Shown: positions 40,716 through 52,148 of the stretch, piece by piece
Layout of the letters: each line of letters opens with the position of its first letter
Position numbering within the stretch: the first letter of the stretch is position 1
DNA from: Promethearchaeota archaeon
GTDB lineage: Archaea > Asgardarchaeota > Lokiarchaeia > Sigyniarchaeales > SOKP01
NCBI GenBank assembly: GCA_048939995.1
Contig: JBHLOY010000002.1
Span: 64,001 to 128,000 of the forward strand
Direction of reading: 5' to 3'
DNA length: 64,000 nucleotides
Made by a program: the position numbers and the translations under genes
Notes under the pieces: generated by a model
Told to the model about the DNA's origin: nothing
Seen by the model: the letters and a program-made list of their open reading frames with translations, nothing else
The model's database searches: none

Positions 40716-41966
40716 ATGGTTAATAAATTAACATTAAATAGAACTTTTCAGTTATATGAGGAAGCATTGAAATTAATCCCTGGAGCCATCTTAGGCATTC
40801 GTAGACCTTATAATTTTGTTGTAGGAGAATATCCGATATTCTTTGACACTGCCAAGGGAGGAAATGTGATTGATGTAGATGGAAATTCTTATATTGACAT
40901 GCTTTGCGCTTATGGACCTATTATAATAGGCCATCAGGAAAAAGAAATAGATGACGCGGTAATTCAACAGATAAAAGACAAAGGTTTTTGCATGTCCCTA
41001 ACTCAACCAATACAAAATCAATTAGCTAAGAAATTGAAAAATCTCATACCCTGTTGTGAAAAAATGGTATTTACAAAAATGGGCTCTGATGCTACAACAG
41101 CAGCGATTAGAGTGGCACGTGCCTATACTAAACGTACAATAATATTACATTGTGGTTATCATGGATGGCATGACTGGTCATGTGAAGTACATGGGGTTGC
41201 CGCAGGTATTCCTGAAAAACTCTATGAAGATATTCATGAATTTGAATTCAATAATCTTGCTCAACTGGAAAAATTGTTTAAAATGTATAAGAATCAGGTT
41301 GCAGGAGTCATTCTTACCCCTATAAATACACCGGGAGGAAGAGAGGTTGAAATGCCCATAAAAGGATTCTTAGAAGCAATCAGAGAATTAACTGCTGAAA
41401 ATGGAGCGCTTTTAATTTATGACGAGATAAGAACAGGTTTTAGGGTAGATATGGGTGGCGCACAGAAAATGTTCGAGGTAATACCTGATCTAGCTGCTTT
41501 TGGAAAGGCAATGGGAAATGGATACCCTATTAGCACACTTGTAGGTAAGGAAGAATTTATGGATGTACTTGTTGAAAAGGTTTTTTTAAGCTCAACCTTT
41601 TTTCCAAATAGTCTTTCTCAGATTGCCTCGCTTAAAACTATAGAAATTTTGCAACGTGAAAACGTTTTAAAGGATATAAGTGAAAAGGGTAAATATTTTG
41701 CAAAGAGGATAAAGGAAAGTATTGAAAGATACAATATTCCTTGCAACTTTACAGGAGAACCATGGATGCCATATATTACATTCACGCCTGATCCTAAATT
41801 TCTATATCGAAAATTAAGAGAAGAGTTTTATAGACAACTTATTAGACGAAAAGTTTTCTTACAACCTTTTCACCATGGTTATATTTGCTATCGTCATTCA
41901 TATGAGGATTTAGATTTTGCTGCAGACATGATCTCAGAATCAATGGCAGAATTAAAGAAAATGTAG
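40716..41966 (+). CDS. kat: 3-aminobutyryl-CoA aminotransferase (class III PLP)
   Basis: Class III motifs DEIRTGFR and FGKAMGNG. The distinctive GIRRPYNFVxGEYPIFF, FLSSTFFPNS and QPFHHGYICYRH segments match, as I recall it, Kat of Ca. Cloacimonas acidaminovorans. Clustered with kce/kdd. Confidence 0.85.
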   Translation: MVNKLTLNRTFQLYEEALKLIPGAILGIRRPYNFVVGEYPIFFDTAKGGNVIDVDGNSYIDMLCAYGPIIIGHQEKEIDDAVIQQIKDKGFCMSLTQPIQNQLAKKLKNLIPCCEKMVFTKMGSDATTAAIRVARAYTKRTIILHCGYHGWHDWSCEVHGVAAGIPEKLYEDIHEFEFNNLAQLEKLFKMYKNQVAGVILTPINTPGGREVEMPIKGFLEAIRELTAENGALLIYDEIRTGFRVDMGGAQKMFEVIPDLAAFGKAMGNGYPISTLVGKEEFMDVLVEKVFLSSTFFPNSLSQIASLKTIEILQRENVLKDISEKGKYFAKRIKESIERYNIPCNFTGEPWMPYITFTPDPKFLYRKLREEFYRQLIRRKVFLQPFHHGYICYRHSYEDLDFAADMISESMAELKKM

Positions 41967-42548
41967 GATTAAAGACATAATTGAAGTAGTTACAAAACCA
42001 ATAGTAGAAAAAGAGCTAATAATAGTTATTTTAAATTTAGAATATTTTTTCTTATAGGTAGTATCTAATTCTTCTTCTTTAATTGGAAAAGAGCTATCAG
42101 GGTTCCAAATCTCATCCATCCTAAAGCCTATAGCTCCAGAAGTTGGAGGTCCAACACTCAAATTATACATACGCACTGTAGAATGATCATAATATGGGAG
42201 CCTTGAATCTTTTGAGACTTTCATCCGATTGTAAATCTGACCAGAACTAGGACCTTTGAGGATTAGAGACGTCAGAAAGATTATTTCTGGTATCAGGATT
42301 ATTAAAGTTAAAGGAAGCACGATTGAAACAACAATACTACTAATTATAATTCCAGAATAAAAATAAAAAAAATAATTAATCTTAACTAAAATAGTGTAAA
42401 ATGTTCCTAAAACAAGACAGCTTACTGTAATTGCCTCAATTATAGTTAACAGAAAATTTTGGTGTGAAATAACTAAAAAGTAACCAAATATGACAATATG
42501 AATTGTTGTTAATATGAAAGTAAAAATTTTTTTTAAACTATTATTGAT
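41952..42548 (-). CDS. Membrane protein (paralog B); start inferred at ATC 42548
   Basis: Homology to the upstream paralog (H.V.F..F..ISHQNFLLTI.E) extends far upstream of the track start at 42320. Also shares LPYYD and MDE.WNPDS. Overlaps the kat 3' end by 15 nt. Confidence 0.7.
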   Translation of the reverse strand: MNNSLKKIFTFILTTIHIVIFGYFLVISHQNFLLTIIEAITVSCLVLGTFYTILVKINYFFYFYSGIIISSIVVSIVLPLTLIILIPEIIFLTSLILKGPSSGQIYNRMKVSKDSRLPYYDHSTVRMYNLSVGPPTSGAIGFRMDEIWNPDSSFPIKEEELDTTYKKKYSKFKITIISSFSTIGFVTTSIMSLILHFL

Positions 42549-42574
42549 TCTTTGTACACCTGATGTTATTTTAA

Positions 42575-49751: not shown

Positions 49752-49819
49752 CTCTATTATTTAAATATTATCTCAATTAATTTAAATAAAGATTTGAAAA
49801 AAATGGAGAAAAACCTGAA

Positions 49820-51391
49820 ATGATTATGAGTAAATTAAATATTGACTTCACTGTTGTAGAAAAAGCAAGAGATAAAGCCAAAAAAATAGCATTAGATACT
49901 CAAAAATTTATTGATCAACATACTACAACCACTATTGAGAGAACTGTTTGTAGGTTAATGAGTATAGATGGAGTCGATGATTTTGGAGTACCCTACCCAA
50001 ATATTGTAATTGATCATATTAATAAGAAAGATAAACTTGGAATTGGAGTCTCACTATTAATTGGAAACGCTATGATACATACTGGTCAAAATCCTCAAAA
50101 AATAGCGGAACAAATTGTAAATGAGGATTTGGATCTTCTAACTTTGGAACTTAATGATCTAAATAAAATTAAGAAAATAATTCAACCTATAGTTAAAGAA
50201 GCACTTGAAAAAATTAAAAAAAATAAGGAAAAGCGGATAGGTCTGCTTAAAAGATACGGTGATAAAGAAGGACCTTATATCTATGTAATTGTGGCAACTG
50301 GAAACATTTATGAAGATATAATCCAAGCAAAAGCTGCAGCAAGACAAGGTGCAGATATAATAGCAGTCATTAGGTCCACTGGTCAAAGTCTTCTAGATTA
50401 CGTACCATATGGTCCAACTACCGAAGGATATGGAGGAACTTTTGCAACTCAAGAAAATTTTAGACTTATGAGAGACGCTTTAGATGAAGTGAGTGAAGAA
50501 TTAAAAAGATACATCAGATTAACTAACTATTGTTCTGGTTTATGCATGCCTGAGATAGCTGTTATAGGTGCATTTGAACGCTTAGACGTTATGCTAAATG
50601 ATGCTCTCTATGGAATTCTTTTTAGAGATATTAATATGCAACGAACAATTATTGACCAATACTTTTCCAGAATGATAAATGCATATGCAGGTGTAATAAT
50701 TAATACAGGTGAGGATAATTATCTCACAACAGCCAATGCTTTCGAAGCAGCTCACACAGTTTTAGCGTCCCAATTTATTAACGAGCAGTTTGCTTTCCTA
50801 GCTGGCTTAAAAGAAGAACAAATGGGATTAGGTCACGCTTTTGAGATGGATCCAGATTTAGAAAATGGGTTTTTATTTGAATTAGCTCAAGCACAAATGA
50901 CACGAGAAATCTTTCCCAGAGCTAGTTTGAAATATATGCCCCCAACAAAATTTATGTCCGGAAATATATTCAAAGGGCATATCCAAGATGCCTTATTCAA
51001 TATTATTACAATTATGACTGATCAAAAAATACATCTTTTGGGTATGCTCACAGAAGCAATCCATACTCCTTTTATGTCTGATAGAGCATTATCAATTGAA
51101 AATGCACGCTATATATTTAATAACATGAAATCAATTAGTGAGGAAATATCATTTAAGAAAGGGGGTTTAATGGAAAAGAGAGCTAGACAAATCTTAAATG
51201 ATGCATTCCAATTACTACGAGAAATTGAAAAAGAAGGGCTATTTAATACTATTGAAAAAGGTATTTTTGCTAATATTAAAAGAGCTAAAGATGCTGGAAA
51301 AGGTTTAGAAGGTGTAGTGAAGAAAGATAAAGATTATTTTAATCCATTTTTGGAAATCATGAAAAAAGAATTAATGGGTGGTGAGGGCTAA
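49820..51391 (+). CDS. kamD: Beta-lysine 5,6-aminomutase alpha subunit (AdoCbl/PLP)
   Basis: YVIVATGNIYED, RSTGQSLLDYVP, NYCSGLCMPE, KYMPPTKFM. Confidence 0.95.
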   Translation: MIMSKLNIDFTVVEKARDKAKKIALDTQKFIDQHTTTTIERTVCRLMSIDGVDDFGVPYPNIVIDHINKKDKLGIGVSLLIGNAMIHTGQNPQKIAEQIVNEDLDLLTLELNDLNKIKKIIQPIVKEALEKIKKNKEKRIGLLKRYGDKEGPYIYVIVATGNIYEDIIQAKAAARQGADIIAVIRSTGQSLLDYVPYGPTTEGYGGTFATQENFRLMRDALDEVSEELKRYIRLTNYCSGLCMPEIAVIGAFERLDVMLNDALYGILFRDINMQRTIIDQYFSRMINAYAGVIINTGEDNYLTTANAFEAAHTVLASQFINEQFAFLAGLKEEQMGLGHAFEMDPDLENGFLFELAQAQMTREIFPRASLKYMPPTKFMSGNIFKGHIQDALFNIITIMTDQKIHLLGMLTEAIHTPFMSDRALSIENARYIFNNMKSISEEISFKKGGLMEKRARQILNDAFQLLREIEKEGLFNTIEKGIFANIKRAKDAGKGLEGVVKKDKDYFNPFLEIMKKELMGGEG

Positions 51392-52148
51392 TTTGGAACG
51401 AAATAAAGCTATAGATCTTACTAGAATAAAGCCATATGGAGATACACTTAATGATGGAAAAATTCAAATTAGTTTTACGCTTCCCGTAGAAGATGGCGAA
51501 AAAGCAGTAGTTGCTGCTAAAAATGTAGCTGAAAGATTAGGTTTAGAAGATCCTAATGTAGTTTATCATAAAAAACTGGACGTTGGATTTACATTTTTCA
51601 TTATATATGGTCATATAAATTTCACCATTGATTATAAAAAAATCAAGACTGAATCGGTTGAAGTTGAAAAGATGACGATTCAGGAAATTAATGAATATAT
51701 TCGTTCCAACATTAAACGTAAAGTTATAGTACTTGGTGCAACTACTGGAACCGACGCTCACACTGTTGGAATATCAGCAATTATATCGATGAAGGGTTAT
51801 GCAGGACATAAGGGGCTTGAGAGTTATGAAATGATAGATGCTTACAATTTGGGAAGCCAAATATCAAACGAGGAATTTATAAAAAAGGCAATTGAGATGA
51901 ACGCAGAGGTACTCCTTGTATCTCAAACAGTAACTCAAAAGAATATTCATATAAAGAATTTAACAAATTTAGTTGAATTATTAGAAGCAGAGGGTATTAG
52001 AGATAAAATCATACTTATCTGTGGAGGTCCTAGAGTAAGTAATGAATTAGCAAAAGAGCTAGGGTATGACGCCGGTTTTGGTCCGGAGACCTATGCAGAG
52101 ACTGTTGCCTCTTACTTTATCAAAGAGATTGTTAATCGGCAACAATAA
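51378..52148 (+). CDS. kamE: Beta-lysine 5,6-aminomutase beta subunit (B12-binding)
   Basis: KPYGDTLNDG, B12 motif DAHTVG and PLP Lys in MKGYAG. Overlaps kamD. Confidence 0.95.
   Translation: MVRANLERNKAIDLTRIKPYGDTLNDGKIQISFTLPVEDGEKAVVAAKNVAERLGLEDPNVVYHKKLDVGFTFFIIYGHINFTIDYKKIKTESVEVEKMTIQEINEYIRSNIKRKVIVLGATTGTDAHTVGISAIISMKGYAGHKGLESYEMIDAYNLGSQISNEEFIKKAIEMNAEVLLVSQTVTQKNIHIKNLTNLVELLEAEGIRDKIILICGGPRVSNELAKELGYDAGFGPETYAETVASYFIKEIVNRQQ

Follow-up and report, generated by a model that had tools for sequence, protein, structure and literature searches.

A predicted Kat-type variant of bacterial lysine fermentation in a Lokiarchaeia genome, with a core probably acquired once from a Bacteroidota-like source

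The stretch of DNA analyzed here (the window) comprises 64,000 nucleotides of a Promethearchaeota archaeon of the Lokiarchaeia and forms part of a 528,484-bp contig (G000:C17:64001-128000). Between window positions 40716 and 52148, the system used for all coordinates below, it carries seven co-oriented open reading frames (ORFs) predicted to encode a lysine fermentation pathway of the bacterial type. An original prediction had read these ORFs, all of which lie on the + strand at the positions it gave, as a horizontally acquired, B12-dependent lysine catabolism. Six of the seven genes, all but kat, pass the corresponding NCBIfam equivalog cut-offs:

40716..41966, + strand: kat, putative 3-aminobutyryl-CoA:2-oxoglutarate aminotransferase (class III, HemL-like), assigned from PF00202 (179 bits), tree and synteny
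43317..44138, + strand: kce (NF052387, 423 bits, cut-off 382)
44224..45264, + strand: kdd, predicted L-erythro-3,5-diaminohexanoate dehydrogenase (NF052381, 269 bits, cut-off 200)
47367..48665, + strand: kamA, predicted lysine 2,3-aminomutase, a radical S-adenosylmethionine (SAM) and pyridoxal 5'-phosphate (PLP) enzyme (TIGR03820, 600 bits, cut-off 525)
48723..49751, + strand: kamB, lysine 5,6-aminomutase reactivase subunit, predicted SIMIBI-class P-loop nucleoside triphosphatase (NTPase) (NF052386, 405 bits, cut-off 210)
49820..51391, + strand: kamD (NF052384, 913 bits, cut-off 600)
51378..52148, + strand: kamE (NF052385, 384 bits, cut-off 280)

The intergenic distances suggest that these genes are organized in three transcription units, encompassing kat, kce-kdd and kamA-kamB-kamD-kamE.

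Alignment with proteins of known structure outlined a conserved set of catalytic residues in the core enzymes. KamA matched lysine 2,3-aminomutase (PDB 2A5H) with 670 bits and keeps the equivalents of Cys125/129/132 (the CxxxCxxC cluster), Arg134, Asp293, Asp330 and the PLP-binding Lys337. Two of these residues, Asp293 and Asp330 of 2A5H, bind the epsilon-amino group of lysine. KamD matched chain A of PDB 8T0V and 1XRS with 828-846 bits, and KamE presents both the cobalamin motif DxHxxG, in support of the proposed B12 dependence, and a lysine 11 residues past the histidine that corresponds to PLP Lys144 of 1XRS. Kce matched the Cloacimonas Kce (PDB 2Y7D, 247 bits) and retains the His-x-His and Glu zinc ligands, and Kdd and Kce are both present and clustered, each above its NCBIfam cut-off. 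Family assignments and retained catalytic residues hence both support the KamA, KamDE, Kdd and Kce steps. The concern that KamDE might be specific for ornithine was not borne out, since KamD and KamE pass the lysine models NF052384 and NF052385 while the model of the ornithine aminomutase OraE reached only 153-156 bits on KamD (cut-off 800), and the ornithine aminomutase reading was rejected. Together with the Kat tree described below, the NCBIfam scores and structural alignments bear out the gene identities of the original prediction.

The first gene of the cluster occupies the kal locus adjoining kce in a genome where no Kal was found (best match 24.6 bits, cut-off 160). In 'Candidatus Cloacimonas acidaminovorans' and a digester Bacteroidetes, the kal locus has been shown to harbour a HemL-like gene whose product is the 3-aminobutyryl-CoA aminotransferase Kat (Perret et al. 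2011, PMC3149608). The window protein falls below every NCBIfam cut-off, its best match being the glutamate-1-semialdehyde aminomutase model (275, cut-off 527), and such a sub-cut-off HemL-like profile is what the same authors describe for Kat (PMC3149608). Its PLP lysine (GK) and DE motif are invariant in alignment A1. In a library of representatives clustered at 50% identity, the best match (55% identical) carries the Joint Genome Institute (JGI) name 3-aminobutanoyl-CoA transaminase, and identity drops to 42% for the next full-length representative. Among the species genomes scanned, bacterial homologues that are 50-61% identical occur in Bacteroidota, Cloacimonadota, Elusimicrobiota, Bacillota and further groups, and many adjoin kce, kdd and kamDE; identity to the Kat of Cloacimonadota and digester Bacteroidota is approximately 61%. 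A phylogeny inferred with the careful method and rooted on seven other class-III aminotransferases placed the window protein inside a Kat clade with support of 98/99 against those enzymes, with the topology (Bacteroidetes ADurb.Bin139, (Cloacimonadota, (Asgard + Elusimicrobiota + G404))) and support of 100/99 and 97/93. The original prediction had Kat deaminate its substrate, which needs correction: Kat transfers the amino group to 2-oxoglutarate.

The distribution of the pathway across the phylum provided a further line of evidence. KamD was detected in 85 of 400 genomes, all belonging to two families of one order (74 of 134 in family f1, 10 of 14 in its sister family f3, and the window's own genome). 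Within the order these are 85 of about 150 genomes, four of the 85 being closed, and KamD was not found in any of the approximately 250 genomes of the phylum outside it. A Kat orthologue is present in 60 genomes of the order and Kal in 27. Among the 85 genomes with KamD, 54 encode only Kat, 23 only Kal, one both and seven neither, most of these seven being incomplete. The same either/or pattern holds within the window's own genus (20 Kat, 13 Kal, none with both), and in one relative (G247) Kal sits in the exact slot that Kat holds in the window, between the gene for a 526-aa protein and kce. From phylogeny, synteny and this either/or pattern, we infer that the window aminotransferase is Kat. 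The only genome with both enzymes is closed (G138, 6.04 Mb) and encodes Kal at L144:8980-9336 and Kat-Kce at L144:13585-15753.

Comparison with bacterial loci pointed to a specific relationship with the Bacteroidota. Bacteroidetes ADurb.Bin139 (L063) carries kat-kce-kdd-kamA-kamB-(kamC)-kamD-kamE in a single block, and its proteins are 58-66% identical to those of the window, with the exception of the fast-evolving KamB (30%). Two further Bacteroidota genomes (G535, G647) present the same block with Kal in first position, and this Kal is 76-78% identical to Asgard Kal. The Kal-type Bacteroidota clusters closest to the Asgard ones also contain two tandem kdd paralogues (L141:3816-5891, L142:3871-5963). 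In a concatenate of Kce, Kdd, KamA, KamD and KamE (20 taxa, 1,795 columns, quick method), the Asgard sequences form one clan, with a Shimodaira-Hasegawa-like approximate likelihood ratio test (SH-aLRT) support of 100, whose sister is the Bacteroidota trio (100); Acidaminobacter and other bacteria fall outside this grouping. The Asgard clan divides into the family of the cultured species and that of the window, and Kat-type genomes are interspersed with Kal-type ones. As far as they are resolved, the single-gene trees are in agreement with the concatenate, with Asgard Kdd monophyletic at 99. The simplest reading of these phylogenies would be that the core was acquired once, long ago, and then inherited vertically with losses, the first gene of the cluster being exchanged repeatedly. 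The bacterial origin postulated by the original prediction is supported on two counts, in that Kat is nested within bacterial Kat and the core has as its sister group a Bacteroidota cluster that shares its gene order, and a single Asgard core clan with a Bacteroidota sister fits one old acquisition.

The cluster is an established part of its host genome. The metagenome-assembled genome (MAG) spans 3.75 Mb in 38 contigs, with 98% completeness and an estimated contamination of 5.3%, and the cluster lies 104-116 kb into the 528-kb contig. GC content is even along the window (0.27-0.38), the synonymous-codon scores of the cluster genes range from the 15th to the 83rd percentile among 1,816 long ORFs from the same genome, and the cluster is flanked by HdrA, FrhB-GltD fusion, AOR and HerA-like genes. 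The database proteins closest to Kat all come from Promethearchaeota MAGs, and the same cluster with the same flanking genes recurs across the order, the four closed genomes included. The deep contig position, native codon usage and spread over 85 genomes thus indicate that the segment is neither a chimera nor a recent import, and the recency implied by the original prediction does not stand: this is an old, order-level acquisition, followed by vertical inheritance.

These data outline a Kat variant of bacterial lysine fermentation, resident in a Lokiarchaeia-type Asgard genome and with a core acquired once from a Bacteroidota-like source, a reading to which we assign a probability of roughly 0.85. 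In the proposed pathway, KamA would convert L-lysine to beta-lysine, which KamDE, using adenosylcobalamin and PLP, would convert to 3,5-diaminohexanoate. Kdd would oxidize this compound to 3-keto-5-aminohexanoate, and Kce, with acetyl-CoA, would yield 3-aminobutyryl-CoA and acetoacetate. Kat, as judged from phylogeny, synteny and its alternation with Kal, would then transfer the amino group of 3-aminobutyryl-CoA to 2-oxoglutarate, generating acetoacetyl-CoA and glutamate. In evolutionary terms, the ancestor of the order would have gained the core once from a Bacteroidota-like cluster of the form kal/kat-kce-kdd-kamA-kamB-kamC-kamD-kamE and transmitted it vertically since; later changes would comprise the swapping of kal and kat at the first position, the loss of kamC in most of the window's family and the insertion of unrelated genes at the junctions.

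Several observations weigh against this reading. All enzyme roles in the window's genome are read from sequence comparison, and the relatedness of its Kat to the characterized enzyme is established through other Cloacimonadota and digester Bacteroidota sequences, not through the assayed Cloacimonas Kat itself. Moreover, Kat-clade genes of Syntrophaceae and other Desulfobacterota (L055-L058, L072, L079) have no kam, kdd or kce within the fetched flanks, so clade membership alone does not settle the substrate. The enzymatic alternative that follows is that the window aminotransferase acts on another beta- or omega-amino compound, 3-aminobutyryl-CoA being handled by an unrecognized enzyme. There is no curated Kat model, and a Kat homologue without kam genes nearby has also been reported in strain NaphS2 (Perret et al. 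2011, PMC3149608). Five Asgard genomes (G257, G267, G259, G231 and G196), two of them at least 99% complete, likewise encode a Kat orthologue but no detectable KamD, and some members of the clade, for instance in the Desulfobacterota, may use another substrate. Against this alternative, Kat and Kal are almost mutually exclusive over 85 genomes and occupy a common chromosomal position, the adjacency to kce is kept in archaea and bacteria, and the clade of the window sequence is the one that includes the assayed enzymes of Cloacimonas and digester Bacteroidota. We consequently grant it a low probability.

The direction of transfer is the second point at which the evidence is divided. The core trees include 7-12 bacterial sequences, with Fusobacteriota and most Clostridia left out, and the sampling of 300 Bacteroidota genomes for KamD contributed just two extra sequences. 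When the KamD tree is rooted on OraE, the bacteria fall inside Asgard diversity, and the direction of core transfer consequently rests on midpoint rooting and distribution. Given this thin bacterial sampling, and since the only outgroup-rooted core tree (KamD/OraE) places its root inside the Asgard sequences, this direction is something we infer, not something the trees demonstrate. The core could conversely be ancestral to Lokiarchaeia and have passed to bacteria, or have been transferred several times independently. Besides the nesting of the sampled bacterial KamD, this scenario would accommodate the split of Asgard Kat into two or three lineages, which form a polytomy with Elusimicrobiota and G404, and the high identity of Asgard and Bacteroidota Kal, which points to a separate and later exchange of Kal. 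The OraE branch, however, measures about 5 substitutions per site, which makes the KamD root unreliable, and we did not rely on it. The well-rooted Kat tree nests the Asgard sequences within bacteria, KamD is confined to one order of the phylum, and its carriers among the bacteria come from six or more phyla and sit on much longer branches. On balance, we consider a Lokiarchaeia-to-bacteria transfer, or multiple transfers, improbable.

A third alternative is that KamA acts as AblA, providing beta-lysine for the osmolyte N-epsilon-acetyl-beta-lysine, in which case the cluster would not be catabolic. Archaeal KamA homologues often serve osmolyte synthesis, and the best NCBIfam model for the window protein is named lys_2_3_AblA. 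No acetyltransferase was identified among the ORFs of at least 80 aa between 37.6 and 56.4 kb, the stretch to which the AblB search was confined; in addition, kamB, kamD and kamE directly follow kamA, and its synteny with kdd, kce and kat extends across two domains. Osmolyte synthesis was rejected on these grounds and is very improbable. Lastly, the possibility that bacterial DNA was misassembled or misbinned into an archaeal MAG, which the estimated contamination of 5.3% and the 52-69% identity of the cluster genes to their bacterial counterparts might suggest, is effectively refuted by the position deep inside a 528-kb contig, the native GC content and codon usage, the archaeal-type flanks (HdrA, FrhB fusions, HerA) and the recurrence of the cluster with its flanking genes in 85 genomes of the order.

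The remaining difficulty for the Kat-type fermentation pathway concerns the reactivation and cofactor supply of its cobalamin-dependent enzyme. Bacteria and the sister family f3 encode KamC, an ATPase with a MutS domain, between kamB and kamD (484 bits in G135, cut-off 300). No KamC was found in the window's genome, where the sole match (208-211 bits, cut-off 300) is the true MutS1, so that only KamB of the two-part KamB-KamC reactivase is present. A PduO-type ATP:cob(I)alamin adenosyltransferase (PF01923) was not found in the genome either, in a search limited to that type. The lack of both matches puts the supply and upkeep of the KamDE cofactor in doubt. KamC was detected in 8 of 14 genomes in f3, against 2 of 131 in f1 (missing from the other 129), whereas KamB is retained everywhere among the genomes compared. 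The window KamB conserves a P-loop with a Walker A motif like that of dethiobiotin synthetase, described both as G21-x2-K-N-x2-K28-T29 and as G21-x5-S-K28-T29, and D144-G145. A search with its AlphaFold 2 (AF2) model, which has a predicted local distance difference test (pLDDT) score of 88, returned nothing below E = 0.001 in Foldseek, and the wide VIA search matched the model to SIMIBI NTPases with Z scores of 10-12.3, including SRP54, dethiobiotin synthetase, the G-domain of IcmF and MMAA. The last two are chaperones of B12 mutases and, because the fold matches include such proteins, the predicted structure suggests that KamB may act alone, without KamC.

Four genes on the opposite strand interleave with the pathway genes, as the original prediction had described:

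41952..42320, - strand: small ORF of 122 aa, paralogue of the 182-aa ORF; a lineage-specific insertion and not a pathway gene
42575..43123, - strand: small ORF of 182 aa, without family match; a lineage-specific insertion
45370..46377, - strand: D-2-hydroxyacid dehydrogenase family protein (PF02826, 136 bits), between kdd and kamA
46448..47254, - strand: tetratricopeptide-repeat (TPR) protein, with TPR Pfam matches; a lineage-specific insertion

The two small ORFs, which have no Pfam or NCBIfam match, are tandem paralogues that match the same single gene (L149:5174-5731) of the closest relative, G262. The 182-aa ORF is 60% identical to this single-copy homologue and has none in the other loci compared. 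The dehydrogenase falls below all NCBIfam cut-offs; its gene occupies the same place in G262, G189 and G210, all of them Kat-type, and is not at the locus in the Kat-type G240 and G265 or in the Kal-type G247. For the TPR gene, no match was found in G262 or in the other loci compared. The locus of G262 hence contains one copy of the small ORF and the dehydrogenase, and no TPR gene. In G240 and G265, kat-kce-kdd-kamA are contiguous and followed by a gene for a 589-aa TPR protein, and in the f3 genome G135 an Lrp regulator and a dipeptidase lie between kce and kdd. The inserted genes thus vary among close relatives, which supports the earlier proposal of an operon broken up after transfer.

Beyond the cluster, the genome encodes proteins that could process the products of the proposed pathway. 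Pfam-level searches identified four glutamate dehydrogenases, about nine genes resembling ADP-forming acyl-CoA synthetases, and 14 matches each for thiolase and acyl-CoA dehydrogenase. Contig C13 carries two adjacent CoA_trans ORFs (50 and 37 bits, family-level matches) close to genes of the thiolase and acyl-CoA dehydrogenase families. As suggested by these family-level matches, glutamate dehydrogenase would regenerate 2-oxoglutarate, a CoA-transferase and thiolases would convert both C4 units to acetyl-CoA, ATP would be obtained through ADP-forming acyl-CoA synthetases, and reducing equivalents would exit as H2 or formate, or via butyrate. A calculation based on the published reactions indicates that the Kat route could proceed as lysine + 4 H2O -> 3 acetate + 2 NH3 + 2 H2, with two net acetyl-CoA, and that the Kal route yields acetate and butyrate. 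By this stoichiometry, the Kat form would fit a syntrophy based on H2 or formate transfer. It is conceivable, if rather unlikely, that the repeated kal/kat swaps inside single Lokiarchaeia genera represent an adaptive switch between two lysine fermentations and that KamB alone reactivates the aminomutase in the KamC-less family. If so, the Kal form would be redox-balanced and make butyrate, and the Kat form would be more oxidizing, obtain about two acetyl-CoA per lysine and have to export H2 or formate to a syntrophic partner.

A lysine pathway has already been reported for the cultured Asgard archaeon MK-D1: under 'Lysine degradation', Supplementary Table 4 of Imachi et al. 2020 (PMC7015854) gives expression values for kamA, kamD, kamE, kdd, kce and kal, together with a CoA transferase, butyryl-CoA dehydrogenase and Etf. 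Bacterial-type lysine fermentation in Asgard archaea is hence not new, and Kat itself was characterized in 2011. The window's organism is placed in the same taxonomic order as MK-D1 and has in common with it a lifestyle of degrading peptides and amino acids; its kamA, kamD, kamE, kdd and kce are orthologous to those of MK-D1, with 59-69% identity to the family of the latter. MK-D1 differs in using Kal, which yields crotonyl-CoA and then butyrate, in keeping KamC and in having kce-kal some 20 kb away from the kam genes, whereas the window uses Kat and has neither Kal nor KamC. Genome G143 shows exactly the MK-D1 layout of lysine genes.

With 'Candidatus Cloacimonas acidaminovorans' and digester Bacteroidetes (PMC3149608), the window shares a HemL-like class-III aminotransferase at the kal locus next to kce, the absence of kal and the same kamA, kamDE, kdd and kce set. 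It departs from that system in its archaeal host, the missing kamC and an operon in three units split by opposite-strand genes, and its Kat is a predicted enzyme. The Kal-type pathways of Fusobacterium, Clostridium and Porphyromonas have the first four steps and their cofactors (radical SAM, adenosylcobalamin, PLP and Zn) in common with the window. The fifth step in the window is a transamination, in contrast to the ammonia elimination of those bacteria, so crotonyl-CoA would not be formed directly.

Beyond the supplement of Imachi et al., the searchable literature contained nothing relevant on Asgard lysine catabolism, Asgard Kat or KamB/KamC. The window cluster is a solid but ordinary addition to these systems and does not constitute a new kind of system. 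The original prediction stands as regards gene functions, bacterial origin and the break-up of the operon, and falls short in the novelty and recency that it implied. Lokiarchaeia provide the models in culture for the archaeal forebear of eukaryotes, and current scenarios of eukaryogenesis build on their syntrophic fermentation of amino acids. The metabolic picture is refined in that most of the lysine-fermenting genomes sampled in the order appear to take the transaminase route and not the published lyase route, with a core pathway that probably derives once from a Bacteroidota-like operon and a B12-enzyme reactivase apparently reduced to KamB in the window's family.

The genes on either side of the cluster also recur among relatives. 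Directly upstream of kat, a short-chain dehydrogenase/reductase (SDR) gene and the gene for the 526-aa protein (37671-40269) form a block that is conserved directly upstream of kat or kal in the window's family. The 526-aa protein, without a convincing Pfam domain, is 70-94% identical among relatives (L068, L076, L146, L149). Downstream, a gamma-glutamyltransferase gene (52220-53767) follows kamE on the same strand after 71 nt, an arrangement also found in G262, while in other relatives this gene lies 6-9 kb away.

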